The position numbers and the translations under genes are program-made. This document shows, one piece after another, positions 3,548-59,728 of a DNA stretch of 64,000 bases; within the stretch, counting starts at the first letter, position 1, and every line of letters begins with the position of its first letter. The notes below the pieces were generated by a model. It was not told where the DNA came from. It worked only from the letters and a program-made list of their open reading frames with translations, and searched no databases. Source of the stretch: a virus; the IMG/VR virus record IMGVR_UViG_3300045988_098681; one strand, 5' to 3'.

Positions 3548-4852
3548 TGAGAGTAGAAGAATGGCTTGGCGAAGATAATAAGATTGGGTTAGATATTTGG
3601 CACAAAAAGTATCAACATGGCAATGAGACATTCGATGAATGGCTTGATAGAGTAAGTGGAGGTGATAATGACCTAAGAGAACTCATTAAAAGTAAAAAGT
3701 TCTTATTTGGTGGCAGAGTGCTTGCGAATCGAGGTGTGCCAGATAGTGGGAATTTTTATAATTGCTTTTCTGCCGGATATGTAAAAGACGATTATGCAAG
3801 TATTATGGACGTATTAAAAGAAGTTGGTATTACGTTCAAGTATCAAGGTGGTCAAGGAATCTCCATGTCGAAACTTCGTCCAAAAGGAACAAAAATTGGC
3901 GATAATTATGAGTCAGATGGTATTGTTCCTTTTATTGAAATGTTCAATTCTGTCACTAAAGGTACTTCGCAAGGCGGTGCAAGAAAAGGTGCTTTGATGA
4001 TTAGCTTAGACATCAATCACAAAGAAGCCGAAACATTCATCAAGCTAAAAACTGATCTTGACGCTGTAACAAAAGCGAATCTCTCTATGGAAATAGACGA
4101 TGAGTTTATGACTGCGGTGCAAGAGTTCTACTATGATGGGACAATAAAAACATTACATAAGAGATACAACTACAATGGGCATGTTGTGGAATATGATATT
4201 ACGCCGATTGAATTGTATAAATTGATGATGGAAGTTGTATGGGACTACGGGGAGCCGGGGTGTATCTTTGTAGACGAATTTAGGAACAACAACTTTTTAG
4301 AGCTTGATAACGAGTATCAAATAGAAACTTGCAATCCATGCGGAGAACAACCATTAAAAGCTCGTACAAGCTGCTTGCTTGGCTCATTAAACTTATACGA
4401 GTTTGTTGAAAACAAGTTTACAAGTGATGTGTATTTTAACTTTGAGGAATTTGCAAAAGCTATTAAAGTAGCCTCAAATGCACTTGATAACATCATCGAA
4501 GAAAATGCTCCAAGGCTTCCTAAAGAACTGGAGCAATACAAACAAAACGCTTATGATTGGCGTAATATGGGGCTTGGTGTATTCAACTATGCACACATGC
4601 TCATGGCTATGGGGCTTAAATACGGTAGCGAAGAAGCGTTGGCTTTTACTGATACGCTATTTTACACTATGATGATAGAAGCCATTATATCAAATGACGA
4701 AAGGGGCAAAGAAAAGGGTAATTATCCAAAGTTCAAAGGCGGGTTAGTACAAAAGTCCACGATGTTTAGAAACCATGCCCCCGAAGAACTTTTACAAAAC
4801 GGTGCGCTACATGCTAGAAATTGCACGTTGTTATCTATCGCGCCAACTGGAT
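3547..4852 (+). CDS. nrdJ: class II (B12-dependent) ribonucleotide reductase, exon 1
   Basis: GGAGGA RBS at 3535-3540. RNR active-site motif 'CNPCGEQPL'. The ORF breaks right after 'LLSIAPTG', with a stop 3 codons later. Confidence 0.8.
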
Positions 4853-5155
4853 TAACACAATAGGTTCAGTATAAACTATTTTAATTGCTGGAAACCCCTT
4901 AGAGCTACTTAAACTACAACGTAGGTATGAAATAAAACCAAGCGTGAATGTCTGAAAATTAAGTAGATTGGGCAATCAGCAGCTAAGACTCGAATAGAGT
5001 AAAGTTCAACGACTATCCCGCAAGGGAGTACACAATAAGCAAGAAATGATTGTGGAAAAGGATAGATACTATTTATAGTATAAGATATAGTCTATTCTTA
5101 TAGGAAACTATAAGCAGTTATATAACGGCAAATGTCTTGCGAACATTTGTGAATG
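4853..5155 (+). ncRNA. group I self-splicing intron (ORF-less, ~303 nt)
   Basis: R-like core 'GTTCAACGACTAT' at 4994-5006 and S-like core 'AAGATATAGTC' at 5082-5092. A 7-bp P1 pairs exon ACTGGAT (4846-4852) with GTTCAGT (4864-4870), with U.G at the splice site. The intron ends on G5155 and the exons join in frame. Confidence 0.8.
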
Positions 5156-33029: not shown

Positions 33030-33570
33030 CAGCAATTTGTGTAGCCATAATAATTGATGTGCCTGTAAAGGTATAGTTATTTCCTATATTCAAAGTAGAG
33101 CGACAAAGCCTAGATAATTCATGATTGAATTGCAAAGTTCCGACACCTGCTACATCTGCGCCATTTAGCGTTTTCATAAGCTCCATTTCCATTACATCAA
33201 CTCTAGGGCATGGCACACCTTGATAATCCACTAGGGCATTTTTTGTTCCATATAAGATATCAAATCTATAACAAACCGTAGACAATATAGGATTGTCCGG
33301 CAGTGTATCATATCTATAAATCTTTAATATAGTCTTAGAGTCCACAAGCTCGTTTGGCTCAACATTCGTAAGGAAAACATTGTAATTGTGCATATCATCA
33401 AAATCCTTACACACCAACGAGAGCTTTTCGTCCTCCGTTAAATCATCACGATCCAAAGCATCGTATGTATTATATTTTAAGAGTTTGAAAAATTTATCGT
33501 TCTTTGCCAACTCTACAACAATTCGATAAGGAATAAATGGGAGGCTAAAGAATTTGTTAAATTTACTCAT
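32998..33570 (-). CDS. hypothetical protein
   Basis: 190-aa ORF with a GGGGGTGGG-type RBS. Confidence 0.5.
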   Translation of the reverse strand: MSKFNKFFSLPFIPYRIVVELAKNDKFFKLLKYNTYDALDRDDLTEDEKLSLVCKDFDDMHNYNVFLTNVEPNELVDSKTILKIYRYDTLPDNPILSTVCYRFDILYGTKNALVDYQGVPCPRVDVMEMELMKTLNGADVAGVGTLQFNHELSRLCRSTLNIGNNYTFTGTSIIMATQIADVQGDSTCGM

Positions 33571-38204: not shown

Positions 38205-38567
38205 CCTTAATCCAGTCTTGCCCTCGCCAAAAGGCAGACCTCTCATACTTTCATATGAGTTCAGACTATATCTGCATCTTATATTTCGATATAAGAGCCT
38301 CATTTTTCTTTCGCCATAAACTTGCGATTTTACATCCCCCTCAAGGGGCTAGTCGTTGAGCGTTCCTCTATTCGAGGCTTCGTTGCTAAACACCCATTTA
38401 CATTCACTTAGGATTTAACCTTATGAATATCTCTTTTACTTTTTTCTACTTTCGTAACATTCACGCCTAGACTTATTTCATTCTTACGTTGTAGTGAAAA
38501 GAGCTTTAGGGATTCAAAGCATTTAACGAGGAGTCTTTGCACCTCACGATACAAAGAGGGCTACGCT
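38205..38567 (-). ncRNA. group I self-splicing intron (ORF-less, ~363 nt)
   Basis: On the - strand: P1 GGGU|AGCGUA GCCC, an R-like 'CGCTCAACGACTAGCC' (~38347-38362), an S-like 'AGATATAGTCTGAAC' (~38261-38275), ending on G38205. Confidence 0.75.
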
Positions 38568-48861: not shown

Positions 48862-49716
48862 TTATTTCCTGCGATATGTTGTAAATTTATCTGGCACATT
48901 ACCAACATATCCAAAAGCTATAGGGTGTCTTGCACACATTACAACCCTCTGTTCTTGTCCTGAGCCACGCACATTACCAAACGTTGTCACATCATCACCC
49001 AATCCGCTTTTGCCAAGGCAAGACGCATAGGCACTGGAACTTTCAGCAATCGTCAAAATTCCACTTTTCGATTTGTTATACACAATACCAACATGAGTTA
49101 TATATCTAAATGACGATTGTTCAAGACCATCTGTGTCTCCATCGCTCACATTATTGCTACGATAAAAAACCAAATCACCAATATCTGCTTTACTATATGG
49201 AATCTCACAGCCTAATTTATAAAGTTCTTGAGCCATAGATGCGGCGTTATCAAATGTTATAAATGCTCTATTTCCTGCATCATTTTCATATGTATTGTCT
49301 TTATAATATGTCTTATTATTCTTTTTAATACCATATGCAACTTGCGCGGCTAAAAACTCAAAATAATAACCCCAATCAAACACCTTTGTAATAACTGTTG
49401 TTGGGGTTGATTTAAAATCTTTAATATTTCTGCCCATCCAAATCATCTGCGCAAAAATACCACAATTCATAATATAATCACCTTTATACATACATCCATT
49501 AGTGGAACCATTGAGCGATGATACAGAATTCGGATAAGCATAGCTTTCTCTTCGGAAACTGCCGTCATAAACAAATTTTGATTTATTGTTAAGATAATCT
49601 GTTATAAGTGATTGCAAGGCATCTTTTTGTTTATTACTTAATGTTGGGATGGAGCTATTTGTATCATCTATTGGTAACTGAAATCTTAAAGTACCATCTA
49701 CTTCGTAATTTTTCAT
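48862..49716 (-). CDS. NlpC/P60-like cell-wall hydrolase candidate
   Basis: Candidate nucleophile 'NCGIFAQMIW'. 'GDLVFYRS...ITHVGIVYN' resembles the NlpC/P60 His block. Confidence 0.45.
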   Translation of the reverse strand: MKNYEVDGTLRFQLPIDDTNSSIPTLSNKQKDALQSLITDYLNNKSKFVYDGSFRRESYAYPNSVSSLNGSTNGCMYKGDYIMNCGIFAQMIWMGRNIKDFKSTPTTVITKVFDWGYYFEFLAAQVAYGIKKNNKTYYKDNTYENDAGNRAFITFDNAASMAQELYKLGCEIPYSKADIGDLVFYRSNNVSDGDTDGLEQSSFRYITHVGIVYNKSKSGILTIAESSSAYASCLGKSGLGDDVTTFGNVRGSGQEQRVVMCARHPIAFGYVGNVPDKFTTYRRK

Positions 49717-49735
49717 ATTTTCCTCCTAATAAAAT

Positions 49736-49760
49736 AACCCCACCGACCATCAGTGGGGTT
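49736..49760 (-). terminator. rho-independent terminator
   Basis: 8-bp stem AACCCCAC / GTGGGGTT. On the - strand it is followed by ATTTTATT. Confidence 0.55.
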
Positions 49761-49859
49761 AAGTTTGACCGACCATCAGTCATTCGCTATTTAATAGATA
49801 AGGTCAAAACATGCCATTCTAATCTAAATGGACTTATAGTTCCTTGCTAATCTAATTTT

Positions 49860-50099
49860 TTATTTAAAAGAAGATTTAAGATAAAAGTATCCGCAACTCT
49901 TGTTCGAGCCATCTTTGTTTTTAATCACGTTGCCATCTTTATCTTTTGCAAAGCCATCACATACATACACGTTATCGCCAAGTTTGGTTTTGCGTAATGT
50001 TGCTCCACACTTACGACAAGTTAATTGCTTTTCCTCTTTTGGCTCTAACGGTTTGAGATTTAATACCTCTCTCATGCTTTCAAAACTGTTTACTTTCAT
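49860..50099 (-). CDS. hypothetical zinc-ribbon protein
   Basis: ATG 50099 with a GGAGAG RBS. 'CRKCGATL...YVCDG'. Confidence 0.45.
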   Translation of the reverse strand: MKVNSFESMREVLNLKPLEPKEEKQLTCRKCGATLRKTKLGDNVYVCDGFAKDKDGNVIKNKDGSNKSCGYFYLKSSFK

Positions 50100-50239
50100 A
50101 CCCTTTCTCTCCTTTTGTTCTGTGTAATGCACAACTTTTTCACTTGTATTTATGCTGTTATTATGAGAAGCCCAAGCGCATTTTCGTATTGTGCATGATA
50201 GCCTTTTCGCTAAACGAATCCCTTGTACTTCGGGTTAAT

Positions 50240-50314
50240 TGGCATACCTACTACGAATCGAACATAGATATACGGTTTTGGAGACCGCTGTTTTCCCAAT
50301 TAAACTATAGGCAC
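50240..50314 (-). tRNA. tRNA-Trp: tRNA-Trp (anticodon CCA), CCA-encoded
   Basis: Cloverleaf folded by eye: acceptor GTGCCTA/TAGGTAT, D stem GTTT/AAAC, anticodon stem GCGGT/ACCGT with loop CTCCAAA, T arm CTATG-TTCGATT-CGTAG. Confidence 0.75.
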
Positions 50315-50377
50315 ATATCAGATGAGTTAAGTTTCTCTAACTCACCAAGTACGCATCCGAAAACACATACCCCAATT

Positions 50378-50740
50378 TTAAAATAATTCTTGTTCAGTTA
50401 TTCCAATATTTTCTTCTGTATATGGTAAAAACAAATGACCAAATCTACCACGCACTTCTCCATTATCTTTTGGAAATCTTAAAAAATGTTTGTAATCTGT
50501 TAATAGCTTAGGACAATTTTTTTCTACCCACTGTTTAGTTGCAGTAATACAATAATCCGAAGACGTATCTACAAAATTAAATACTACAAATACTACACAT
50601 AATTTATTTTCTTTTACCCAATCTTCATTGTCAAATGGAATTTTTAAATTGTCTTCAAACCATGTGATAAAAGGTTCATCATCAGGAAAATCTCTTTCTA
50701 AAAACCAATTATTTAATTCAAAATAAATTATATTTTCCAT
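50378..50740 (-). CDS. hypothetical protein
   Basis: 120-aa ORF between tRNA genes. Confidence 0.5.
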   Translation of the reverse strand: MENIIYFELNNWFLERDFPDDEPFITWFEDNLKIPFDNEDWVKENKLCVVFVVFNFVDTSSDYCITATKQWVEKNCPKLLTDYKHFLRFPKDNGEVRGRFGHLFLPYTEENIGITEQELF

Positions 50741-50770
50741 TACACCGTCCTAAACTTTCTATAAATTTAA

Positions 50771-50847
50771 TGGTGATGCCACCGAGGCTCGAACTCGGAC
50801 TTTTCAGCTTGAAAGGCTGATGTGTTAACCAGTTACACTATGGCACC
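50771..50847 (-). tRNA. tRNA-Glu: tRNA-Glu (anticodon UUC), CCA-encoded
   Basis: Acceptor GGTGCCA/TGGCATC, anticodon stem TCAGC/GCTGA with loop CTTTCAA, T arm CCGAG-TTCGAGC-CTCGG. Confidence 0.8.
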
Positions 50848-50925
50848 ATACGAAGAAAGTATAATAGATAATTTCTAAAATTTGTATTAAATCCCACAAT
50901 AAGAAATTATCAAACATAAAGGGAT

Positions 50926-51002
50926 TGGCGGGACATCTAGGATTCGAACCTAGAATCTTGCGGTTAACAGCCGCCTGCTCTAACCAGCTGAGCTAATGTC
51001 CC
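50926..51002 (-). tRNA. tRNA-Asn: tRNA-Asn (anticodon GUU), CCA-encoded
   Basis: Acceptor GGGACAT/ATGTCCC, D arm GCTC-AGCTGGTTA-GAGC, anticodon loop CTGTTAA, T arm CTAGG-TTCGAAT-CCTAG. Confidence 0.85.
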
Positions 51003-51300
51003 ATATGGATGCAGGTACTCGACACTCCCCTTAGCTAAATCAAAGGATTTTAGGTGGCGATAGTTCAATAACTTATTTGCCTAACATGTGCAAACAAGTT
51101 TATTCATGCTCAGCCACCTAGAACTTTCATTAAGAAAAATTGTTGGAAACGACAGGACTCGACGTTACGTTCAACTAAAAAAAGTTGATTCCTTATTCAT
51201 CGTGCTCTGTTTTGCCGAAGCTATTCCAGTTGGTATAGCACTCCAAAGGCTTAAATTCCCATGTAGCGATTTGGTACATATATGTAGTCACTTCTAGTTG
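51003..51300 (-). ncRNA. putative TnpB omega RNA (reRNA) / transposon right-end region
   Basis: ORF-free 3' flank of tnpB. Nested stems TAGGTGGC/GCCACCTA (51051-51058/51113-51120) and CTTATTTGC/GCAAACAAG (51072-51080/51090-51098). The single non-Watson-Crick pair is A-C on the + strand and G-U on the - strand. Confidence 0.4.
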
Positions 51301-52425
51301 TTAAACTACATATTTCATTAAATTGATTGCTGCGTTGTAATCACGATCTATTACGGGACCGCATTCTGGACAGACGTAGATTCTGTCGCTGAGCTTTAGG
51401 TTTGACTTAATCGTTCCGCAACAAGAACATGTTTTGGAAGAAGGGCAGAACCGATCTACCTGTACGAACTCGATCCCATTCCACTCACACTTGTATTTCA
51501 TCTGACGAACAAACTCATAAAAGCATTGTTCCTGAATTACTTTTGACAGGTGTTTATTCTTCATCATTCCAGACACATTAAGGTTCTCCATGACGACCCG
51601 ATATGGACGCATAAATACGAGTTTATGTGTTGCTTGATGAATATGATTTTGTCTTGTCATTGAAATGTGATAGGAAAGTTCTCGAATTTGTTCTTCGACT
51701 TTAAGAATATTAGCCGTCTTTTCAAAATTACCATTTTGATAATACTTACGAGAAACTTTACGTTGAAGGCGCTTCAATTTCTTTTGCTTTTTCTTCATGT
51801 TGGAAGTTTTGTTAATGTTCTTAATGACAATATTTTCATCGCCAAAAGCTACACTACAAAGCGCTTTGATTCCAAGGTCAATACCCATGGACTTATTTGT
51901 CAGCTCCAATACTTGGTTCTCACACTCAAAGCCAACTGTTAAAATCCATTTCTTATTGACATATGATATTCTTGGATTGTAAAATTTTGCTTCTTTTCCT
52001 AGTGGGACATTGTAGTTTGTCCGATATTTTACTTTACCGAGCTTTGGAATTGTTACAGATTCTTCGGTAAAGTAAGTTCCATCGTTTCTGATTGGATAAT
52101 TAGGTTTCGATTTCTTTTTACTTTTAAATTTAGGAAAACCTGCGCCACGAAAAAAGTTTGAATATGCTTTATCAAGGTCTCTTAATGTTGTTACCAAGCT
52201 CGCATTTAAAACTTCATTAAGCCAAGCATATTGTTCTTCTTTTTTCAATGGAGTGAGTTTCTTGATAAGATCAAAAGATGATAATTTCTTGCCGATGGAA
52301 GAGTATTCCACTTTTTGAATCTCTAATCCCCAATTCCAGATAAACCTACAACACCCAATGTGTTTCCACATCAATTCTTCCTGCTCCTTAGTTGGGAGCA
52401 GTCTGATCTTGTACGTTTTCATCAT
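51301..52425 (-). CDS. tnpB: TnpB (IS200/IS605-family RuvC-like RNA-guided nuclease); no tnpA nearby
   Basis: N-terminus 'YKIRLLPTKEQEELMWKHIGCCRFIWNWGL', RuvC D 'GIDLGIKALCSVA', E 'VVMENLNVSGM', zinc finger 'CSCCG..CPECG', final 'IDRDYNAAINL'. Strong AAGGAGGT RBS. Confidence 0.85.
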   Translation of the reverse strand: MMKTYKIRLLPTKEQEELMWKHIGCCRFIWNWGLEIQKVEYSSIGKKLSSFDLIKKLTPLKKEEQYAWLNEVLNASLVTTLRDLDKAYSNFFRGAGFPKFKSKKKSKPNYPIRNDGTYFTEESVTIPKLGKVKYRTNYNVPLGKEAKFYNPRISYVNKKWILTVGFECENQVLELTNKSMGIDLGIKALCSVAFGDENIVIKNINKTSNMKKKQKKLKRLQRKVSRKYYQNGNFEKTANILKVEEQIRELSYHISMTRQNHIHQATHKLVFMRPYRVVMENLNVSGMMKNKHLSKVIQEQCFYEFVRQMKYKCEWNGIEFVQVDRFCPSSKTCSCCGTIKSNLKLSDRIYVCPECGPVIDRDYNAAINLMKYVV

Positions 52426-53530
52426 TTACCTCCTTTTCTTTAAGATTTTATGAAAAGGAGAGTGGCGGGAACTTACCCCGCACATGCGTTTCTCTCTTGT
52501 TGAATATATGAGCGAGACTTTGGGAACCGTTTTTACCTATCGACATCAGCATAGTGGTATTCAACGTTATCGAGTATGCTCCCGCCTTGCCATCTTCCAA
52601 TGACTGAAAATCTCGCAGAAATCTTAAGTTATTTTACTAAGCTAAACAACTAAATAACATGTGCCATGAACCTTCGTTCTACCTTCCACAATCATCGTCA
52701 TATTCAACCAGTAAGTAGACAAGTCTGTGCCACAGGGAGCTACCCTATGACATCTTGCCTAGATGGAAACCATCAAATCTTACAAGGGGCTCTTTCTACC
52801 CTTAACTTTCACAAAGCATTCAGAATTATTTTCTTCAAATCTTCATCATTTGACATCATTTGACTTGTAAAATTACTACAGTCATTGCTTTTTGCTACTC
52901 GTACCTTGACCCTATCTTATACTTTGTCTTTCGACAATCTCACAGCAAACTTCCTTAGTGGCACTTCCGTACTTATGCCGCTTGCCACAGCGACACAGCC
53001 CTCGGATTCGGCTTACGCTTTTAACGCTTAGCTTCTATTGTGGAAGCGATAGGACAGTGTTTTTAACAAGGATTGCTTTAGCACACACCCCCAGAACCAT
53101 TCTATTCATAAGTGGCATCTTGCATCTCACAATGCAAGCCTTTGACCGTTACCAAAGCTATCGTTTTGGCTAGGCTATTCTTACCCGCAGGTGGGTAGTG
53201 TTCTCTGCACCATGCTCTTGGTCTACACAGAGTTATGGCACACATTATTTAGTTGTCTAAAAATGGCTACGGGATTGAGTACCGCCCTCAACAATAGTCG
53301 GGTCAAAGCCGACTGCGTTCACTTGTTCGCCATCCCGCAATATTTGGTTGGTATACGATTGAAACCATATACCAACCGTAAGGAAAAAAATATGAAAAAA
53401 GCGTTTTTCTTTTTTATTGTGGCGCACCAAATAAATTTTATGGATGTCCTTTTAGGAGGTAAAACACAAAAAACAGAAAGGTTGGTTTTAGGTGCGCCAC
53501 TCGAATATTTTGTTGTTTTCTCTCTTTACA
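52426..53530 (-). ncRNA. candidate large structured non-coding RNA (class unassigned)
   Basis: ~1.1 kb downstream of a perfect consensus promoter with no ORF >=60 aa on the transcribed strand. Many stems: 53419-53428/53491-53500 (10 bp), 53346-53355/53368-53377 (10 bp), 53296-53301/53309-53314, 53119-53125/53132-53138, 52958-52963/52983-52988, and GTC-GAAA-GAC at 52926-52935 (GNRA only on the - strand). Confidence 0.35.
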
Positions 53531-53536
53531 CTTTTC

Positions 53537-53565
53537 ATTATATAGAGATGCTTGCATTTTGTCAA
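53537..53565 (-). promoter_or_regulatory. perfect consensus sigma-70-type promoter (TTGACA-17-TATAAT) on the - strand
   Basis: Reverse complement reads TTGACA (53565-53560), then 17 nt, then TATAAT (53542-53537). It lies just downstream of the stop of gene 53581-54723. Confidence 0.7.
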
Positions 53566-53580
53566 GCAAAATTTCAAATT

Positions 53581-54723
53581 TTACAAATTTATTTTATAAG
53601 TACAAACATCATTGTCAAACACTTGTAAAACTTGATAAGGTTTTGTATTACATCTCAAGCTCATAGCAAACTCGTCAATGCCCGATATAGACCCATTGAC
53701 TACAATCTCTGTACCATTGTCATCTTTTATGTTCATGTGATGAATATGCCCAAAATAAATTCTATCCGGCACTTTACCAAGTAAATTAACAGAATGTAGT
53801 TTAATATTTGACAAAGAATCTTTATCCCCATGTGTCATAAAAACTAATTGGTCTTTTACCTTAAATGTGATCCAATCCTCTAACCCATTCATGCAAACTC
53901 TCACATTCGGCAACCTAAGTTCAATATGCTTAAAAATCAATCTTTCAAAATTTTCAGCAGGCATATTTGATTTCTTATCGGCATTTACTCTTGAGTGATT
54001 TCCAATAACTCCATAAACCTTGGCTTCTGGAATATATGCCTTGAGTCCATTGACAAAGTTAGCCAAAAGTTCTCCGACATTGATAACTTGTGTAATCAAA
54101 TCTTCTTCCGCAGCGATACGACTTTGTAAATGAATTGTGCCACTAATCAAATCACCTGCTAATCCGAGGTGTAATTTTTGTACCTTATGTAGTTGACAAT
54201 AATAGATTGTTTTCTTGAGCAAAGTTTCTAAACGTTCATTGGCAATATCTACATTGTACTCGTTTAGAACATTATCTATTAAAAGTCCATAGTGAAAGTC
54301 AGACAAGATAAGAACCGCCTCTACATTGGTAGAATTTGGTTCATGCACACTATTGAGTTTTAATGGCTCAATATCTTCAATCGCTTTTACCATTAAATCC
54401 TCTAGGTGTTCATATCTTGCACTTTCTCTAAGCAACTTGTTATACTCACGCTTTTGATCTTGCACTCTGCACTTCTCTTTATAAAGTTCTTGGCGCAAAG
54501 TTTCTAACCTAGCAGATTCCTCGCTTGTATATCCTTCTTCGAGCTTTTCAAGCATATACTTATATACTCGATAGCCACAATAGCGACCGCCAGCAAAAGA
54601 TTTCCTTAAAGAGTCAGGGTGAACATCTAGTTCAAGTTCATCTACCATCTCTTCCCAATCTTTATTCGTTGTTCCTTCTACTTTATCTACGAGCAAATCA
54701 AGCTCGTCTTGATAATTTCGCAT
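53581..54723 (-). CDS. calcineurin-like metallophosphoesterase (Mre11/SbcD-type nuclease candidate)
   Basis: Motifs in order: 'LILSDFHYG', 'GDLISG', 'GNHSR', 'THGD', 'GHIHH'. Confidence 0.7.
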   Translation of the reverse strand: MRNYQDELDLLVDKVEGTTNKDWEEMVDELELDVHPDSLRKSFAGGRYCGYRVYKYMLEKLEEGYTSEESARLETLRQELYKEKCRVQDQKREYNKLLRESARYEHLEDLMVKAIEDIEPLKLNSVHEPNSTNVEAVLILSDFHYGLLIDNVLNEYNVDIANERLETLLKKTIYYCQLHKVQKLHLGLAGDLISGTIHLQSRIAAEEDLITQVINVGELLANFVNGLKAYIPEAKVYGVIGNHSRVNADKKSNMPAENFERLIFKHIELRLPNVRVCMNGLEDWITFKVKDQLVFMTHGDKDSLSNIKLHSVNLLGKVPDRIYFGHIHHMNIKDDNGTEIVVNGSISGIDEFAMSLRCNTKPYQVLQVFDNDVCTYKINL

Positions 54724-54914
54724 TAGTTCACCTGTTCCGAGATAAACGAAACTTGCATACCTTCCATATCTCTAAGCATTTCTTCAACGCTAACAACAAT
54801 CGGTTCTTCGTCTTTCTTATCATAAACCTCTACAACAAAGTCACCGTTATCATTTCTTGTTAAGTAGCCAATAACCTTGGTGGTTGTAATGCGACTATAT
54901 GTATCCTTCATCAT
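54723..54914 (-). CDS. hypothetical protein
   Basis: 63-aa ORF coupled on both sides. Confidence 0.45.
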   Translation of the reverse strand: MMKDTYSRITTTKVIGYLTRNDNGDFVVEVYDKKDEEPIVVSVEEMLRDMEGMQVSFISEQVN

Positions 54915-55285
54915 TCATCGTCCTCCTCATAATTGTCTGGTTTAAAAAGCGGGTTCCCCCATGTTTGTTCCATCATCTCACTTCTAAATTGTTGTGAAAT
55001 TAAGAATTGTGGAATATTGTGTTCAAGACGCTCACGACTCAAACTCAACTCACCATTAAGACTTACATTTGGCATATATCTTGGTTTTTTATATGGTCTG
55101 TATTTGAGCGTAAGAGTTCCAACTTTTTGCAAGCACACCTCTCTGCCCGATAATAAACATTCCCTTATCACATGAATGTAGTTTTCTATGATTTCTCTAC
55201 ATTCCTTTTGCGAATACCCAGACAATTCAGAAACTACTCGAACGATATCACCTTGTTTCATTTTAGGTACGTTGTATCCTTTCAT
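54911..55285 (-). CDS. HU/IHF-like DNA-binding protein
   Basis: 'DIVRVVSELSGYSQKECREIIENYIHVIRECLLSGREVCLQKVGTLTLKYR' follows the HU helix-helix-beta-arm pattern. Confidence 0.5.
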   Translation of the reverse strand: MKGYNVPKMKQGDIVRVVSELSGYSQKECREIIENYIHVIRECLLSGREVCLQKVGTLTLKYRPYKKPRYMPNVSLNGELSLSRERLEHNIPQFLISQQFRSEMMEQTWGNPLFKPDNYEEDDE

Positions 55286-55511
55286 TTCTAATCCTTTTAA
55301 TCCTTTCTAATCCATACCCCACGCTGAAATAACAACGTGGGGCTTTATGCAATTCCCATACTTGTATGGCGCATTGGGTAATAGCGCACCCCTACTTGGG
55401 CAAACTGCCCTTTCCAAGATATTCTATCATATAGTAACTTATGATAAAAATTGAACAAACGTTGAAATTTCAACATTCTTAATCTTGTATGTTTTCCCAT
55501 AATTTCACATT

Positions 55512-56117
55512 TTATGTGGTTTTTTGAAAAATTTTGAGCAAATTACTAGGGTTTATTGTATATAAAGTTTTCAATAAAAGCACTTTATTCTTATCTGTTT
55601 TGGCTTTAGACTTCCTGCCATTTCCATCTAAATTTACCCTTAAATGAAAAGCTCTATCTATAAGCCAACTAAACAATCCAAGATAATCTTTTGATATATA
55701 TACTCGTTTAATATCTTCTACCATATTCTCAAAATCTTCTCGTAATATTAAATCGTCCTCAATATCATCAATCGCATTTTGGTATAACCTCAATCCATAA
55801 GCCTCTATAAACGCCTCAACTTTTTTAGATTTTCGTCTGTCCTCTTTGAGTTGGTGATGGTTGTAAAAATAACACATCGGCAAAGTTGACTCATTTGAAC
55901 GTATTTTAGGTGGTTTATAGTCAAAAAGTACATTCATAGGACATTGGAGCTTGTTGTTAATTTTATCTTTTGGTATGGCATAGTTTACATAAAGCCAAAA
56001 GCGTGGATATCCATTATGTTTTACATTAAGTTCTTGTTTTATGCGCCGTATTTCTGAGTTTAGGTCGATATCGTAAGTGCGCTTTGCATTGTCGATAGCA
56101 GCCTGCATTTGTTTTAT
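55512..56117 (-). CDS. YonO/RdRP-like polymerase candidate, exon 2 (junction approximate)
   Basis: The frame is open upstream of ATG 56108. An in-frame join '..ILSVVA|IKQMQAAIDN..' is possible. Confidence 0.45.
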   Translation of the reverse strand: MKQMQAAIDNAKRTYDIDLNSEIRRIKQELNVKHNGYPRFWLYVNYAIPKDKINNKLQCPMNVLFDYKPPKIRSNESTLPMCYFYNHHQLKEDRRKSKKVEAFIEAYGLRLYQNAIDDIEDDLILREDFENMVEDIKRVYISKDYLGLFSWLIDRAFHLRVNLDGNGRKSKAKTDKNKVLLLKTLYTINPSNLLKIFQKTT

Positions 56118-56381
56118 CTCTGGCTCTTTATCCAGAGCTTCTTTAAGTTTCCTTAAAGTATCGGACTATATCTTCACCATGCACTTTCGTGTTTAGGTGT
56201 TCAGCACTCGTGGGGGGATTATTGCTAGTTCTGCTCACCCCCTAGTCTCTGAGCCTTCCTATCTACTAAATGAACCTCGATAGGTTTGGCATATGGTTAG
56301 CATATGCTTTTGCACTTAGCTTTCCACTATTCACTGAATATTTTTTACTAAATGTTTCCACTTAGCTGACCCATTTTACTA
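56118..56381 (-). ncRNA. group I self-splicing intron (ORF-less, ~264 nt; boundaries approximate)
   Basis: On the - strand: an R-like 'GGCTCAGAGACTAG' (56242-56255), an S-like 'AAGATATAGTCC' (56163-56174), then a CTTTAAG-GAAA-CTTAAAG hairpin (P9-like) and a GCTCT..AGAGC hairpin before the proposed 3' splice site. Confidence 0.7.
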
Positions 56382-58337
56382 AGCCACTACACTCAGAATA
56401 CACACATAATCATCATACTCTTTGTCTGTAAAACTATATCCATAAGTCAACGCAAGCTGCGCAAGATTACTAGACTCACCTATTGCCATTTGTGCTTTGG
56501 CAAGGTTGTTGTCTATAACGGCGTGATTGTACATGGATAAGTCATAATGATTTTTTTCTTTTGGAATGTTGTTTACAATGGTTGGATGGTTTATGTAGCA
56601 ATATTTGGCGTAGTCGGCAATGTCATGTTGATTTGTTACAAATACTTGGTCAGAATCCCAGTCGCAGCCATTTAGTCGGTCTTGGACATCTGTGTGTTTG
56701 CAATTCATTGCAATACATTGCTCCCCAATATAAAAATATTTATCTAAAATATCGCTCTTAATATTTTTAAGTCCAATAATATTCGACTTACTATTGTGCG
56801 GGCTTCTAAATCCTGCTAAATACTCGTTTGCTCCAAACCTCTTTGTGTAACATTGAATACAATCCTGCTCTTGACCAAACGTATTGTCTTTTTCTACATC
56901 TTCACCCACACTATGTAATAACATGGCATAAGGAGAGCCAACCATTACTAAGTTATCACCCTCTTGCAACACTTTACCAAACTTTAGATTTTTTACATAA
57001 CCATCAATTATTTTTTTCTTCCTGCTCCTAAAATACTCACTTCGCACAAATTCTGAATCCTGCTCGCACAATGCGACCAAAACCTCGTAGTCATTAGAAA
57101 AGTTCTCATTGTCTCTAAGGTAGTCAAGGAACACATCATTGTCACTCTTTAGTTGTTCAACATACGATTTGCTTCTTGCAAGCACACCATCCATAATTTC
57201 AACATCAAGTGTGTTTATCATTTGGTAACTCATACGTTGAACGTCACCGTATTTGCTCTTGTGTGCAGTTTTAACTATTCCAAATTGACAATCATTCTCA
57301 TGGACTTTCTTACACCAATAGTCATACGATACGTCGAATTTTAACCACTTCATGGAATTATCTGTGGTTATCATCTTGATATCTTTTACATAGTGTTCAT
57401 TGCCCCACATATCGACAACTTTTGCACTTTTGTACTCATCGCCATACCAATCCCTAAAGAACCGTTGTATGTTCGTGTGAAAAGCAGCACACTTTGTCAT
57501 ATGATGTCTTAGTAATACATACCCCTCTCCCCACTTGGGAAAAATCGAATCGTCTATCAAGGCTTGCCCATCGAACAAGGTGTTTTTTAATTCGTAGTCT
57601 TGTATTCGCTTTGCATAACAATGTTTTTTTCCATCAATGCCAATACTCACTACTTCACGCCTAAAAAAACTATCCACATCTTTTAGTATCAATATATTTT
57701 CCGGCTCAATCCTCATGCGTCCAACTATCGTGCTTGCGATGAGTGACACATATGCACTTGCTTCTACTATCGGCGCATTATGCTTTGGAATCTTTAACCC
57801 CATATAAATAAAGTCGTGGGCTTTTTTATAGAGCCTAGAACAAATAAACATAACAGAACCTTGCTTCGCCTTGCCAGCAGAACGATAAAGCATTTTATAG
57901 TGTATTGTTTCTGTTTTCTTTATATTTCCTGCTTTGTCTTTGGTATGATATTTAATATTTATTCCATGTTCGTAATATTCAATTCGTATATCTTCTTTTC
58001 GCTTCTTGACGTACTTATCTCTATTTTCGTCTACTTTATTTAGTAAAAATTCTAATCTCTTTATTTTCTCCTCATCGTCAATTTCTTTTATCTTATTTAC
58101 AATGTTGCCCCTCGTGTCCTCATAACTCTTAGCTCCCATGTCAAAATTCAAGCATATTACATCTCTAGTGAAACCGTTCTTCGACACTTTAAGTCCATTT
58201 TCTAACAAGAAGTCTAAGAAGAGGCTATTTGTCAACATGGCATTAGTATATGGCAGATAATCTCTTGCGCCAAGATTATATTCATATAGTTGTCCTGCCG
58301 AAAAGTTCTTTATTCGTACACCATATTTATTCGTCAT
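56382..58337 (-). CDS. YonO/RdRP-like two-barrel RNA polymerase candidate, exon 1
   Basis: 'GFRSPHNSKSN...(~40 aa)...LNGCDWDSDQVFV' matches the 'RSP.H...GGD.DGD' spacing of the catalytic double-psi beta-barrel in QDE-1/YonO-type polymerases. The ATG at 58337 is preferred over the GTG at 58349. Confidence 0.5.
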
Positions 58338-58338
58338 T

Positions 58339-58509
58339 TTACCACTCACCCCATTGAAATCTTACACACTCATTATAATTAAAGTATCTATATAAAAAAT
58401 CATATTCTTGTTCTTTGTATTCTCTATTTAATCGTTCCTTTTGTGATAAAATGGGATAAACATGGTGACTCATTTCTTCCCAATAATCTTCTTTATCCCT
58501 ATACTCCAT
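58339..58509 (-). CDS. small hypothetical protein (56 aa; below the track cutoff)
   Basis: GGAGGAG RBS and ATG 58509. Stop overlaps the start of the next gene (TAAAATG). Confidence 0.4.
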   Translation of the reverse strand: MEYRDKEDYWEEMSHHVYPILSQKERLNREYKEQEYDFLYRYFNYNECVRFQWGEW

Positions 58510-58550
58510 TACTCCTCCTTTCTTGAATGAATCAATACCTTATATTGTAT

Positions 58551-58579
58551 AGTATAAAGATTCTACCACAAAATGTCAA
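58551..58579 (-). promoter_or_regulatory. sigma-70-type promoter (TTGACA-17-TATACT) on the - strand
   Basis: Reverse complement reads TTGACA (58579-58574), then 17 nt, then TATACT (58556-58551). Divergent from the + promoter 11 nt away. Confidence 0.65.
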
Positions 58580-58589
58580 TAGAATTTGC

Positions 58590-58618
58590 TTGACTTTTAA
58601 CATAACTTATTGTATAAT
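58590..58618 (+). promoter_or_regulatory. sigma-70-type promoter (TTGACT-17-TATAAT)
   Basis: TTGACT 58590-58595, 17-nt spacer, TATAAT 58613-58618, then an AGAGG RBS and ATG 58637. Confidence 0.65.
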
Positions 58619-58636
58619 AAACCAAGAGGTGTTAAA

Positions 58637-59617
58637 ATGAAAGAATTTGAGTTAAAAGAAAAGATAAAAAACCTTGAACGAAAATTGGAACAATATGAGT
58701 TAGAATCGATTGGAATCTATGCGCCAAAACATGCGCTCAATACAAGATCTGAATTTGGAGAGGCAATTAGACAAAACCTAAAAGAACAACGCGAGTGCAG
58801 CAAAGTTAAAAATTTGTTCACCACAACAGGCACAATTCAAAGTATCCTTGTGCAAAACTTTAACTTTGAGTGTTCTGAAATCATAAGAAAGCTCAACGGC
58901 TACAACTTGCAAAGCGCAAAGTTAAAAATTCAAGAAAAAGCGAATAATATGCTAGATGTATGTGACGAATATGGCATTTTAGTGAGCAATCACAATTTAT
59001 TCAACCTCAAAATTGAACAAGCCGAACTTGAAAACGACTACTTGTTATTCCAAGCAGAAGAAAGATATAGAAAGCAAGAACAAGCTCGCAAAATAGCCGA
59101 ACAACGCAAAGCCGACAAAGAATGGTTCGATAGGTTGGTGGAATTAGAGAAAAGAATCCAAGAAAGTATATCTAATGGCGATATTGAGGAAACTGAACGA
59201 TTGCAAGAAGAAGCCAATCAAACACGCCATTTACTCAAAGAAAAGAAAGCAGGTTGGGTATATATCATCAGCAACGAAGATATGCACAATGGATACTATA
59301 AAGTTGGAACAACGCGAAGAATCTCGCCCCTTGTAAGAATAGACGAACTTTCAGACGCAAGCCATGCTTTCAAGTTTAGGATTCATGCGCTCATATATTC
59401 TGAAGATTGTTTTGACTTAGAATCAAGATTGCACAGAAGATTGACAAACTATCGAGTAAACAAAGAAAATCTACATAAAGAATTCTTTGAAATTGACCTT
59501 GAAGAATTACAAATTATCTTGCTTGATGAATTTGGTATTGATGTAGAAATGAATGAAAATATTTACGAGGACGATGAAAAACTCAATGCGCTCTACTCAT
59601 TTATTTACGATAAATAG
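58637..59617 (+). CDS. DUF4041-like coiled-coil + T5orf172 (GIY-YIG superfamily) domain protein
   Basis: C-terminal 'GWVYIISNEDMHNGYYKVGTTRRISPLVRIDEL...ESRLHRRLTNYRVNKENLHKEFFEI' matches the T5orf172/MUG113 pattern. Long N-terminal coiled coil. Confidence 0.7.
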   Translation: MKEFELKEKIKNLERKLEQYELESIGIYAPKHALNTRSEFGEAIRQNLKEQRECSKVKNLFTTTGTIQSILVQNFNFECSEIIRKLNGYNLQSAKLKIQEKANNMLDVCDEYGILVSNHNLFNLKIEQAELENDYLLFQAEERYRKQEQARKIAEQRKADKEWFDRLVELEKRIQESISNGDIEETERLQEEANQTRHLLKEKKAGWVYIISNEDMHNGYYKVGTTRRISPLVRIDELSDASHAFKFRIHALIYSEDCFDLESRLHRRLTNYRVNKENLHKEFFEIDLEELQIILLDEFGIDVEMNENIYEDDEKLNALYSFIYDK

Positions 59618-59705
59618 TCAATACGAAAATTAAGATAAAAAGATTTTAAGATAGACTTGTATAGCCACTCGGTAAATTACTCGACAAACACATAAAAAAC
59701 GATAA

Positions 59706-59728
59706 GGGGGCAAATAACCCCCTTTTTT
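59706..59728. terminator. bidirectional rho-independent terminator
   Basis: GGGGG-caaataa-CCCCC followed by TTTTTT. Lies between convergent genes. Confidence 0.65.

Follow-up and report, generated by a model that had tools for sequence, protein, structure and literature searches.

RNAs derived from the RAGATH-18 motif have been described as the guide RNAs (reRNAs) of TnpB proteins of the ISFba1 type (Ren et al. 2024, PMC11061315). The reRNA of ISFba1 starts 13 nt past the tnpB stop codon; its 73-nt motif is flanked by 37 nt on the 5' side and by 64 nt on the 3' side, after which comes the guide, for which a length of 20 nt is optimal (PMC11061315). Homing of IS605 and IS607 elements has been shown by the Sternberg laboratory, and a 'non-restorative' or intron-less form of homing is discussed in PMC13565253. 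The DNA analysed here is a 64,000-nt stretch of the IMG/VR virus record IMGVR_UViG_3300045988_098681 (the window), and its feature of interest is a tnpB gene located, together with a putative guide RNA, in a 1.48-kb segment (51163-52642) between a ROOL RNA and a tRNA array. By their sequences, the protein and the guide RNA belong to an already characterised family, namely the RAGATH-18/ISFba1-type TnpBs, and are derived from the intron-bearing elements known as IStrons. The segment is a non-autonomous TnpB-reRNA cassette of the RAGATH-18-guided family, residing in a ~100-kb SPbeta-like gut phage, and we consider the chances to be somewhat better than even that it is of homing type. The most likely mode of its spread would be intron-less, transposase-independent homing with marker exclusion, a reading that corresponds to both forms of homing mentioned above.

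The minus-strand open reading frame (ORF) of tnpB spans 51301..52425 (374 codons), and its second ATG (52422) is the likely start, because all close homologues begin with MKTYK and measure 373 aa. The product matches HTH_OrfB_IS605 (PF12323), OrfB_IS605 (PF01385) and Cas12f1-like_TNB (PF07282) of Pfam above their cut-offs and has a complete TnpB domain architecture, with N-terminal HTH/WED-REC, split RuvC and a zinc-ribbon TNB domain. Its best match in the PDB is 8IAZ (E 4e-61, end-to-end alignment), followed by ISDra2 TnpB chains, and it could also be aligned over its full length to 8BF8. The entry 8IAZ, titled only 'Transposase', appears to fit best the ISFba1 TnpB of Ren et al. 2024 (PMC11061315), as a numbering offset of 3 brings its D, N-N, Y and S onto the positions given there. 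An earlier note on this DNA, made from the letters without database searches, had described an intact tnpB with RuvC D/E/D blocks, a zinc finger and a strong ribosome-binding site, and all of these were confirmed. The triad D183/E280/D360 aligns with D194/E290/D371 of ISFba1, the zinc finger (CxxC...CxxC) is formed by C333, C336, C352 and C355, and the Shine-Dalgarno (SD) sequence AAGGAGG lies at 52429-52435, 6 nt before the proposed start; in the alignment to ISFba1 TnpB and an ISDra2-like chain, the catalytic residues are not mutated. The closest TnpB proteins, encoded by seven relatives, are 97, 87, 80, 77, 77, 76 and 73% identical. The ORF is intact in the window and in L001, L073 and L143, and the ratio of nonsynonymous to synonymous substitution rates (dN/dS) is 0.24 vs. 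L073, 0.20 vs. L001 and 0.07 vs. L072, indicating that tnpB is under purifying selection. Results of these comparisons indicate that TnpB of the window is a real and intact member of the RNA-guided nuclease family. It is also a lone one, as the note had claimed: the window contains one copy of TnpB, no ORF is present between ROOL and tnpB, and the interval between ROOL and the tRNAs has no space for tnpA.

The guide RNA had been placed by the same note on the gene strand, just after the tnpB stop codon, and this placement is borne out by a match to RAGATH-18 and by covariation. The match exceeds the Rfam gathering score (44.9 bits) and begins 52 nt after the stop codon, leaving a 5' flank of 51 nt and a 3' flank of ~26 nt. 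In an alignment of the scaffolds of 25 relatives (A1), RNAalifold recovered the core, with compensatory changes in 12 of its 14 pairs. The full structure consists of the core, a 5' hairpin, a 3' hairpin and a pseudoknot that joins the loop of the 5' hairpin (UCGUUAC) to the GUAACGG end of the scaffold. Across the same relatives, 90.8% of cells in this structure are paired, vs. 33-46% with the partners slid, its covariation score is 0.54 vs. 0.10-0.14 with the partners slid, and compensatory changes occur in 20 of the 28 pairs. Covariation that includes the pseudoknot identifies the RNA after the tnpB stop codon as an reRNA of RAGATH-18 type. The single-sequence folding energy was not significant for either strand (z -1.2 for the minus and -0.9 for the plus strand), so the evidence for an RNA on the gene strand is comparative, not thermodynamic, and single-sequence folding was set aside as uninformative with regard to strand or structure. 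The strand had previously been argued from a mismatch said to be A-C on one strand and G-U on the other; this argument could not be confirmed, as all 21 nested pairs of the window reRNA are Watson-Crick pairs in the covariation-supported structure and the sole irregular pair is a minus-strand C.A pair in the pseudoknot (51266/51165). The 298 nt downstream of tnpB, previously described as ORF-free and folded, do contain a folded RNA in 51163-51300, but they do not form one folded RNA, only that part having conserved structure; a mechanical ORF of 69 aa is present on the plus strand (51088-51297).

The right end of the element was located by comparison with seven relatives that are inserted at other sites and were fetched with their contigs. 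In a MAFFT alignment, the sequences following tnpB in these relatives match from the stop codon as far as ...AAUCAAC-UUUUU-AGUUGAA(C/U)GUAACG(G) and show no relationship beyond it, and the limit of BLAST homology falls at window position 51163 for L063, L067, L069, L071 and L072 and at 51164 for L070. From the other side, TnpB-less sibling phages regain homology at 51162, and the right boundary of these empty alleles coincides with the end indicated by the relatives. The two comparisons (seven independent relatives, and nine or more empty alleles) place the right end at 51163/51162 and not near 51020-51050, as had been proposed. Because the homology of the relatives and that of the TnpB-less siblings change over at this point, the predicted scaffold extends from 51300 to 51163 and the guide from 51162 to about 51143. 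The interval 51003-51142, formerly counted as a part of the element, is phage backbone outside it, because the same sequence is present in TnpB-less siblings; this is an outcome that the earlier note itself had named as refuting its view.

The predicted guide is the 3' end of a truncated tRNA-Val-like gene. The window lacks the first (5') ~80 nt of the gene, with no match to them anywhere in it, including 52499-52642, and it contains no second copy of the guide at up to three mismatches. A search of IMG/VR with a 19-mer of the right-end flank and a 25-mer of the left spacer returned nothing. Thirteen matches of an 18-mer of the guide/right-end flank in JGI metagenomes were all rejected as chance, and a search of IMG/VR for other right-end/T-loop junctions (TGTAACGKTCGARTCC) likewise gave only chance matches.

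The intact form of the truncated gene is found in phages that lack the cassette. Two such siblings, L090 and L091, were found in IMG/VR by means of a neighbouring gene encoding a 380-aa phosphoesterase (an exact-protein look-up of this 380-aa neighbour gave no match), and both are 94-99% identical to the window on either side of the cassette and have neither TnpB nor RAGATH-18. Window 52643-59711 corresponds to L090 7074-1, window 50977-51162 corresponds to L090 7439-7254, and the sequence up to 51162, starting from 50977 or 51013, is carried by TnpB-less siblings at 93-98% identity. Between these homologous parts, the 1480 nt of the window (51163-52642) stand against an unrelated stretch of 179 nt in the empty alleles. 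At the junction the empty alleles read ...GGGTCGCAGGT|TCGAGTCCTGCCGTTTCCA, or over a longer distance ...AAAAAGGGTCGCAGGT|TCGAGTCCTGCCGTTTCCAACA, which is the T arm and the acceptor 3' strand of a tRNA-like gene; the sibling sequence at the guide's target is GGGTCGCAGGT-TCGAGTCCTGCCGTTTCCAA. The gene has an acceptor stem (GGAAACG/CGUUUCC), a T arm (GCAGG-UUCGAGU-CCUGC) and a long variable region; it scores 36.3 bits with the Rfam tRNA model (L091 7175-7274) and is detected by ARAGORN only under relaxed settings. It is intact in all nine TnpB-less site-1 alleles (L090, L091, L139, L140, L142, L144-146 and L148).

The guide and its target exist in two variants, GGGTCGCAGGT+TCGAGTCCTG(C/T)CGTTTCCAA. 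A scan for TCGAGTCCTGYCGTTTCCA in one genome per bacterial species (185,579 species representatives) showed that the T variant is the exact 3' end of five tRNA genes, i.e., tRNA-Val(GAC) of three Lachnospiraceae metagenome-assembled genomes (MAGs) and one Blautia MAG, and tRNA-Val(CAC) of one Clostridia MAG. The sequence before the match is GGGTCGCAGGT in all five, just as it is in the phage allele. Since the 19-nt 3' end and GGGTCGCAGGT are shared, the phage gene descends from a tRNA-Val of relatives of the likely hosts. A reading of the tRNA-Val-like 3' end as a phage attachment site (attP) was set aside, as the siblings have the tRNA-like gene complete, including acceptor, D arm and T arm, within a tRNA array, and no integrase gene lies next to it (integrases were not searched for across the whole window).

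The presence of the cassette varies among phages that are 97-99% identical to each other. Ten sibling contigs, seven of them of ~100 kb, were retrieved by means of an HU-like neighbour protein: L143 carries the cassette at the site occupied in the window, L142 and L144 carry it at a second site, and seven have none. The empty second site is present in the window at 50170-50206 (minus strand), just downstream of tRNA-Trp, and these 37 nt are replaced in L142 and L144. The second-site cassette is 91% identical to that of the window and is also intron-less; it ends with GUAACG followed by T, and its left junction falls within 9 nt (GTTTAGCGA) of microhomology to the intron 3' end of the relatives. 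In L073, which has a different genomic background (its surrounding genes differ from those of the window), the cassette differs from that of the window at 22 of 1480 positions vs. 34 of 759 in the flanking ROOL and spacer (Fisher p 4e-5), and the flanks of the window are closer to TnpB-less L090 than to L073.

According to the homing reading, the transcript encoding TnpB may start at the ROOL promoter, and the translated protein would bind the ~138-nt scaffold with ~16-20 nt of guide. During co-infection it would cut the intact tRNA-like gene of cassette-free sibling phages, and the cassette-bearing genome would serve as the template for repair of the break, the left crossover falling in ROOL, the homology arm common to the siblings, and the right one in the 3' end of the tRNA-like gene or the spacer. 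Such repair would copy the 1.48-kb cassette into the recipient in place of its 179 nt, and would account for their being replaced and not merely interrupted. In the window, the cassette with 144 nt of foreign DNA has displaced the 5' part of the tRNA-Val-like gene. ROOL and the sequence matching the guide form the exact limits of the replaced segment, as expected for the repair of a break at the guide's target.

The ancestry of the cassette can be traced through its relatives, which in phages are mostly IStrons. A group I intron recognised by Rfam lies directly upstream of tnpB in L063, L067, L069, L071 and L072, with no more than 160 nt left beside it and hence no space for tnpA, and in a set of 75 related loci, nhmmer with the intron of one relative detected an intron preceding tnpB in at least 37. 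The phage IStrons are in sense orientation in phage genes, with a 5' exon ending in T and a 3' terminus ...CGG; the former is a signature of group A and the latter of group B (IS607-type) (PMC13565253). In L069, joining ...GATAT to GCTGCC... restores the interrupted ORF, and there is pairing between the exon end and an internal guide sequence (GATAT/GTATC); L063, L067 and L071 have P1 pairings of the same kind. The window itself contains the empty site of the L069 IStron at 33271-33306 (minus strand), where an uninterrupted ORF (...KIYRYDTLPDNPIL...) corresponds to the two flanking ORF halves of L069. By its P1 pairing and this empty site, the L069 element would be a spliceable insertion. Between the guide of L069 and the window sequence at 33271-33306 there are several mismatches.

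The copies of tnpB in the window, L001, L073-76 and L143 are intron-less. For the window, Intron_gpI gave no match at E<=1 in 49500-54000, nhmmer with a relative's intron gave none at the tnpB locus, and the idea of a degenerate intron in 52499-52642 or elsewhere in the window was abandoned for want of matches. The left part of the cassette (52499-52642) has no recognisable left end and no junction with a target-adjacent motif (TAM), and 52642 is a junction with mosaic phage DNA. On these comparisons, intron, left end and tnpA have all been lost from the lineage of the window copy. In an IStron, the last intron base would be the G with which the ...AACGG of the family ends; this position is T in all intron-less copies.

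Several observations weigh against homing, and some of them favour its serious rival, by which the cassette is a decaying relic, i.e., an immobile IStron leftover that hitch-hikes in the ROOL-tRNA region and has no working or relevant nuclease; we regard this rival as possible, though doubtful on balance. Cleavage by the window TnpB is itself a prediction from sequence. The absence of tnpA, intron, left end and TAM junction is what a relic would present, as is the rarity of the cassette, found at the window's site in one of ten sampled siblings. The scaffold terminus is ...(U/C)AACGG across ~45 more distant viral relatives, but the intron-less copies (window, L001, L073, L143 and L142) end with ...AACG and then T, and a C at 51266, private to the window copy, breaks one pseudoknot pair. 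The residue corresponding to the contact with TAM position -1 (Q80 in ISDra2, K83 in ISFba1) is V78 here (window ~52189-52191); the position is occupied by Q in all five intron-bearing relatives and by V or I in the intron-less lineages (V in the window and L073, I in L070), so that a Q-to-V change at a TAM contact can be added to the marks of decay. Moreover, all nine empty alleles carry C for the T at position 11 of the guide, and ISFba1 is reported to be mismatch-sensitive (PMC11061315). An interpretation of this C/T difference as the signature of an arms race was rejected, since one and two mismatches at the two sites are consistent with background divergence.

The sequence preceding the target also fits homing poorly. 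The 5 nt before the target in the empty alleles, CAGGT (or AGGTT), are unlike AGGAG/GAGGG of ISFba1, and they also differ from the exon ends of the five closest IStrons, all of which finish with ...AT (GAAAT, ACGAT, GATAT, TGAAT and TTGAT). With TGGGC/GGGCT at the second site, the candidate TAM bases of the two empty sites have RGGY in common. A TAM logo from many IStron 5' junctions, collected by a heuristic based on P1 and the internal guide sequence, was too noisy, and only the five hand-checked junctions were used.

What speaks against a relic is, in turn, the preservation of its parts. Four diverged copies retain an intact ORF, dN/dS being 0.2 within the intron-less lineage and 0.07 vs. 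L072, and all catalytic and zinc-binding residues are kept. The scaffold helices of the window copy are intact save for the one pseudoknot pair, and the change responsible is not present in L001, L073 or L143. The cassette is also less diverged than its flanks across genomic backgrounds, although this could partly reflect constraint and not recent transfer.

The exact matches of the guide to bacterial tRNA-Val genes suggest another role, in which the phage nuclease would cut the tRNA-Val loci of Lachnospiraceae/Blautia, its likely hosts, during infection. The 19-nt matches to the 3' ends of these genes, with the same sequence before them, and the presence in the guide of the host's T instead of the C of the empty phage alleles are consistent with it. 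The match is, however, simply explained by the descent of the phage tRNA-like gene from tRNA-Val; Lachnospiraceae/Blautia are only the presumed hosts; it is not obvious what the phage would gain from a break in the host chromosome, which for a temperate phage would even be dangerous; and there is no homology for homing into the host. We consider this role improbable, and the same low probability applies to a more general use of the nuclease, beyond its own homing, against the host chromosome or any competitor with that tRNA 3' end. If true, it would be a case of a natural OMEGA nuclease re-purposed as a phage weapon against a tRNA gene.

Very little speaks for the model of the earlier note, in which the omega RNA extends to ~51020-51050, the guide abuts tRNA-Asn and RNase P sets the 3' end of the guide. 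The two RNAs are encoded on the same strand, with no predicted terminator between them and possibly a common promoter. However, every comparison puts the limit of the scaffold and the right end at 51163, beyond which the RAGATH-18 layout has no further scaffold, and 51003-51162 is present in siblings without tnpB. The guide lies 140-160 nt upstream of the 5' end of tRNA-Asn (51002), separated from it by a spacer that is also found in those siblings, so that its 3' end cannot be the product of RNase P cleavage at 51002; joint transcription with the tRNAs has no bearing on the definition of the guide. Equally far-fetched is a domesticated, TldR-like, nuclease-independent DNA binder regulating the tRNA/ROOL operon: in its favour are a fixed place in a non-coding RNA operon, the lack of a transposase and a guide matching a tRNA-like gene, but the RuvC triad and zinc finger are intact in a full-length protein, the cassette is polymorphic and occurs at two sites instead of being fixed, and where it is present, the DNA matching the guide follows the end of the scaffold and not the sequence found before the target in the empty alleles.

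The coordinates of the cassette components and neighbouring features are collected in Table 1.

Table 1. Features of the TnpB-reRNA cassette, its surroundings and other group I introns of the window.
Feature	Position	Strand	Remarks
tnpB coding sequence	51301..52422	-	373 aa from second ATG; stop TAA 51301-51303; ORF open to ATG 52425
reRNA (omega RNA) scaffold	51163..51300	-	predicted from Rfam, homology boundary of relatives and covariation
5' hairpin of reRNA scaffold	51259-51274	-	
RAGATH-18 core	51189-51249	-	Rfam RF03064, 63.1 bits, model positions 1-71 of 71
3' hairpin of reRNA scaffold	51172-51187	-	followed by terminal GUAACG
Pseudoknot 3' arm	51162..51168	-	last scaffold bases GUAACG(U); partner loop UCGCUAC 51263-51269
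Predicted guide	51143..51162	-	UCGAGUCCUGUCGUUUCCAA; start uncertain by 1 nt; from right-end comparison
tRNA-Val-like 3' remnant	51144-51162	-	last 19 nt: T loop 3' part, T stem and acceptor 3' strands, discriminator
Spacer	51003..51142	-	ordinary phage DNA; 93-98% identical in TnpB-less siblings
5' leader module	52426..52498	-	73 nt; common to IStrons L071/L072 and the site-2 cassette in L142
Cassette left part, non-coding	52499..52642	-	144 nt of mosaic DNA, absent from TnpB-less siblings
ROOL RNA	52649..53256	-	RF03087, 269.5 bits, full length; also in L073, L090-L096
Candidate sigma-70 promoter	53537..53565	-	TTGACA-17-TATAAT; perfect consensus match only; ~280 nt upstream of ROOL
tRNA-Asn (GTT)	50926..51002	-	first gene of the downstream tRNA array
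Group I intron	4817-5114	+	resembles introns of IStron relatives; without TnpB
Group I intron	~38239-38552	-	resembles introns of IStron relatives; without TnpB
Group I intron	56141-56390	-	between ORFs 56379-58349 and 55512-56108; without TnpB

The leader is 87-89% identical to that of L071 and L072 and is the only part shared with them besides the tnpB-reRNA region. Its predicted fold (-22.4 kcal/mol, z -3.3) comprises GCGGGG-uaaguu-CCCGC, which is a GC hairpin, and a second hairpin, CUCUCCUUUUC...GAAAAGGAGG, in which the SD is sequestered. The two hairpins compete for the CUCUCC segment, one of them hiding the SD of tnpB, and L071 has a compensatory change (GAGGG/CCCUC). The leader may be a translational switch inherited from the IStron. 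Within the left part of the cassette, 52571-52636 resembles a piece of the backbone of other ROOL phages (L092-94). The cassette, as claimed previously, sets the upstream ~1.1-kb non-coding region apart from the tRNAs; this region consists of the ROOL RNA and its promoter region.

ROOL is known to occur near tRNAs and in prophages (PMC5737381). In the window, tRNA-Asn is followed on the same strand by tRNA-Glu and tRNA-Trp, no minus-strand terminator is predicted down to 50100, and co-transcription of ROOL, tnpB, reRNA and tRNAs from the candidate promoter is plausible. The near-repeat to which the earlier note had drawn attention does exist but does not exceed chance (~1.2 such pattern matches are expected per window), and its origin is trivial: one copy belongs to the tRNA-like remnant that adjoins the right end, where it forms the T loop/T stem, and the other consists of spacer and a 6-nt vestige (GTACCT, 51013-51018) of the 5' end of tRNA-Trp, which is present there in L073 and L091. 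Isolated tRNA 3' fragments (T arm and acceptor strand) were noticed downstream of ROOL in L092 (7300-7420) and L095 (7720-7750), and one fragment of L095, with the same ...CGCCGTTTCCA end, is preceded by a radical-SAM-like ORF fragment. Recombination appears to be concentrated in the tRNA(-like) genes that follow ROOL. Even very close relatives differ in their tRNA arrays: compared with the window at 50851, L001 (MT837385.1) has an extra tRNA-Tyr between tRNA-Glu and tRNA-Asn (350-486). Searches of phage GenBank records returned only this near-identical, unannotated record, MT837385. Of the three group I introns found elsewhere in the window, two are Rfam matches at 73-77 bits and one was detected by nhmmer only; those at 4817-5114 and ~38239-38552 reach up to ~90% identity over 62 nt with the introns of IStron relatives.

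The useful part of these results is the picture of a natural population, in which a 1.48-kb cassette that has neither transposase nor intron occupies, or is missing from, two defined sites. With empty alleles in hand, the 97-99% identical, ~100-kb gut phages form a directly testable system. It opens the question whether a TnpB may spread between phages purely by RNA-guided homing and marker exclusion, and how IStrons decay into free-standing nuclease cassettes; the loci compared here provide evidence that such decay takes place in phages. The origin of the guide from a tRNA(-like) gene identical to a host tRNA-Val raises, in addition, the question of off-element targets.

The closest described system, the ISFba1 TnpB (PMC11061315, 8IAZ), has the same protein architecture and D/E/D triad, an reRNA just after the stop codon, a ~50-nt 5' flank before a RAGATH-18 core scoring above the Rfam threshold, a pseudoknot that joins a 5'-flank loop to the scaffold 3' end, and a guide read from the DNA flanking the right end. 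While the 3' flank of ISFba1 is 64 nt long and contains two stem-loops, that of the window copy measures ~26 nt, with one hairpin and GUAACG, and one covarying pseudoknot was found where two are described for ISFba1, the layouts being compared by description. The TAM-contacting lysines K80/K83 of ISFba1 correspond to A75/V78, and its pre-target sequence AGGAG/GAGGG to CAGGT/AGGTT. Unlike ISFba1, the window cassette is phage-borne, lacks tnpA and is kin to intron-bearing elements, which lie outside the account given in PMC11061315. With the IStrons, which combine a group I intron with an IS605/IS607 element (CdISt1, BcISt1 and CboIStron; Tourasse 2014, PMC4227781; Zedaveinyte 2023, bioRxiv 10.1101/2023.11.20.567912; reviewed in PMC13565253), it is connected by relatives with 73-87% identical TnpB, which carry the intron upstream and the guide RNA 3'; the window copy itself differs in having neither the intron nor the ...CGG terminus. 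These relatives differ from the described IStrons in mixing a group A 5' exon with a group B 3' end, and the five closest have no space for tnpA.

Autonomous IS605 and IS607 elements have tnpA and defined ends with a left-end TAM, both of which are missing from the window cassette. According to the homing model of ISDra2/IS605 (Meers et al. 2023, PMC10055086), the element-free allele is cut under the direction of a guide derived from the right-end flank, and repair on the copy that bears the element reinstates it, as would be the case here. The differences are that no TnpA makes empty sites, that the targets would be co-infecting siblings, and that the repair tract would also replace 179 nt of non-homologous DNA. 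A comparison can also be made with T4 SegB (cited in PMC13565253), a free-standing homing endonuclease from the tRNA gene region of T4, of which the window system would be the RNA-guided counterpart. While SegB recognises DNA by protein contacts and the window system, the function of which is deduced, would be RNA-guided, each is a free-standing nuclease gene in a phage tRNA region that would cut a tRNA or tRNA-like gene in related phages and thereby promote its own inheritance and that of neighbouring markers.

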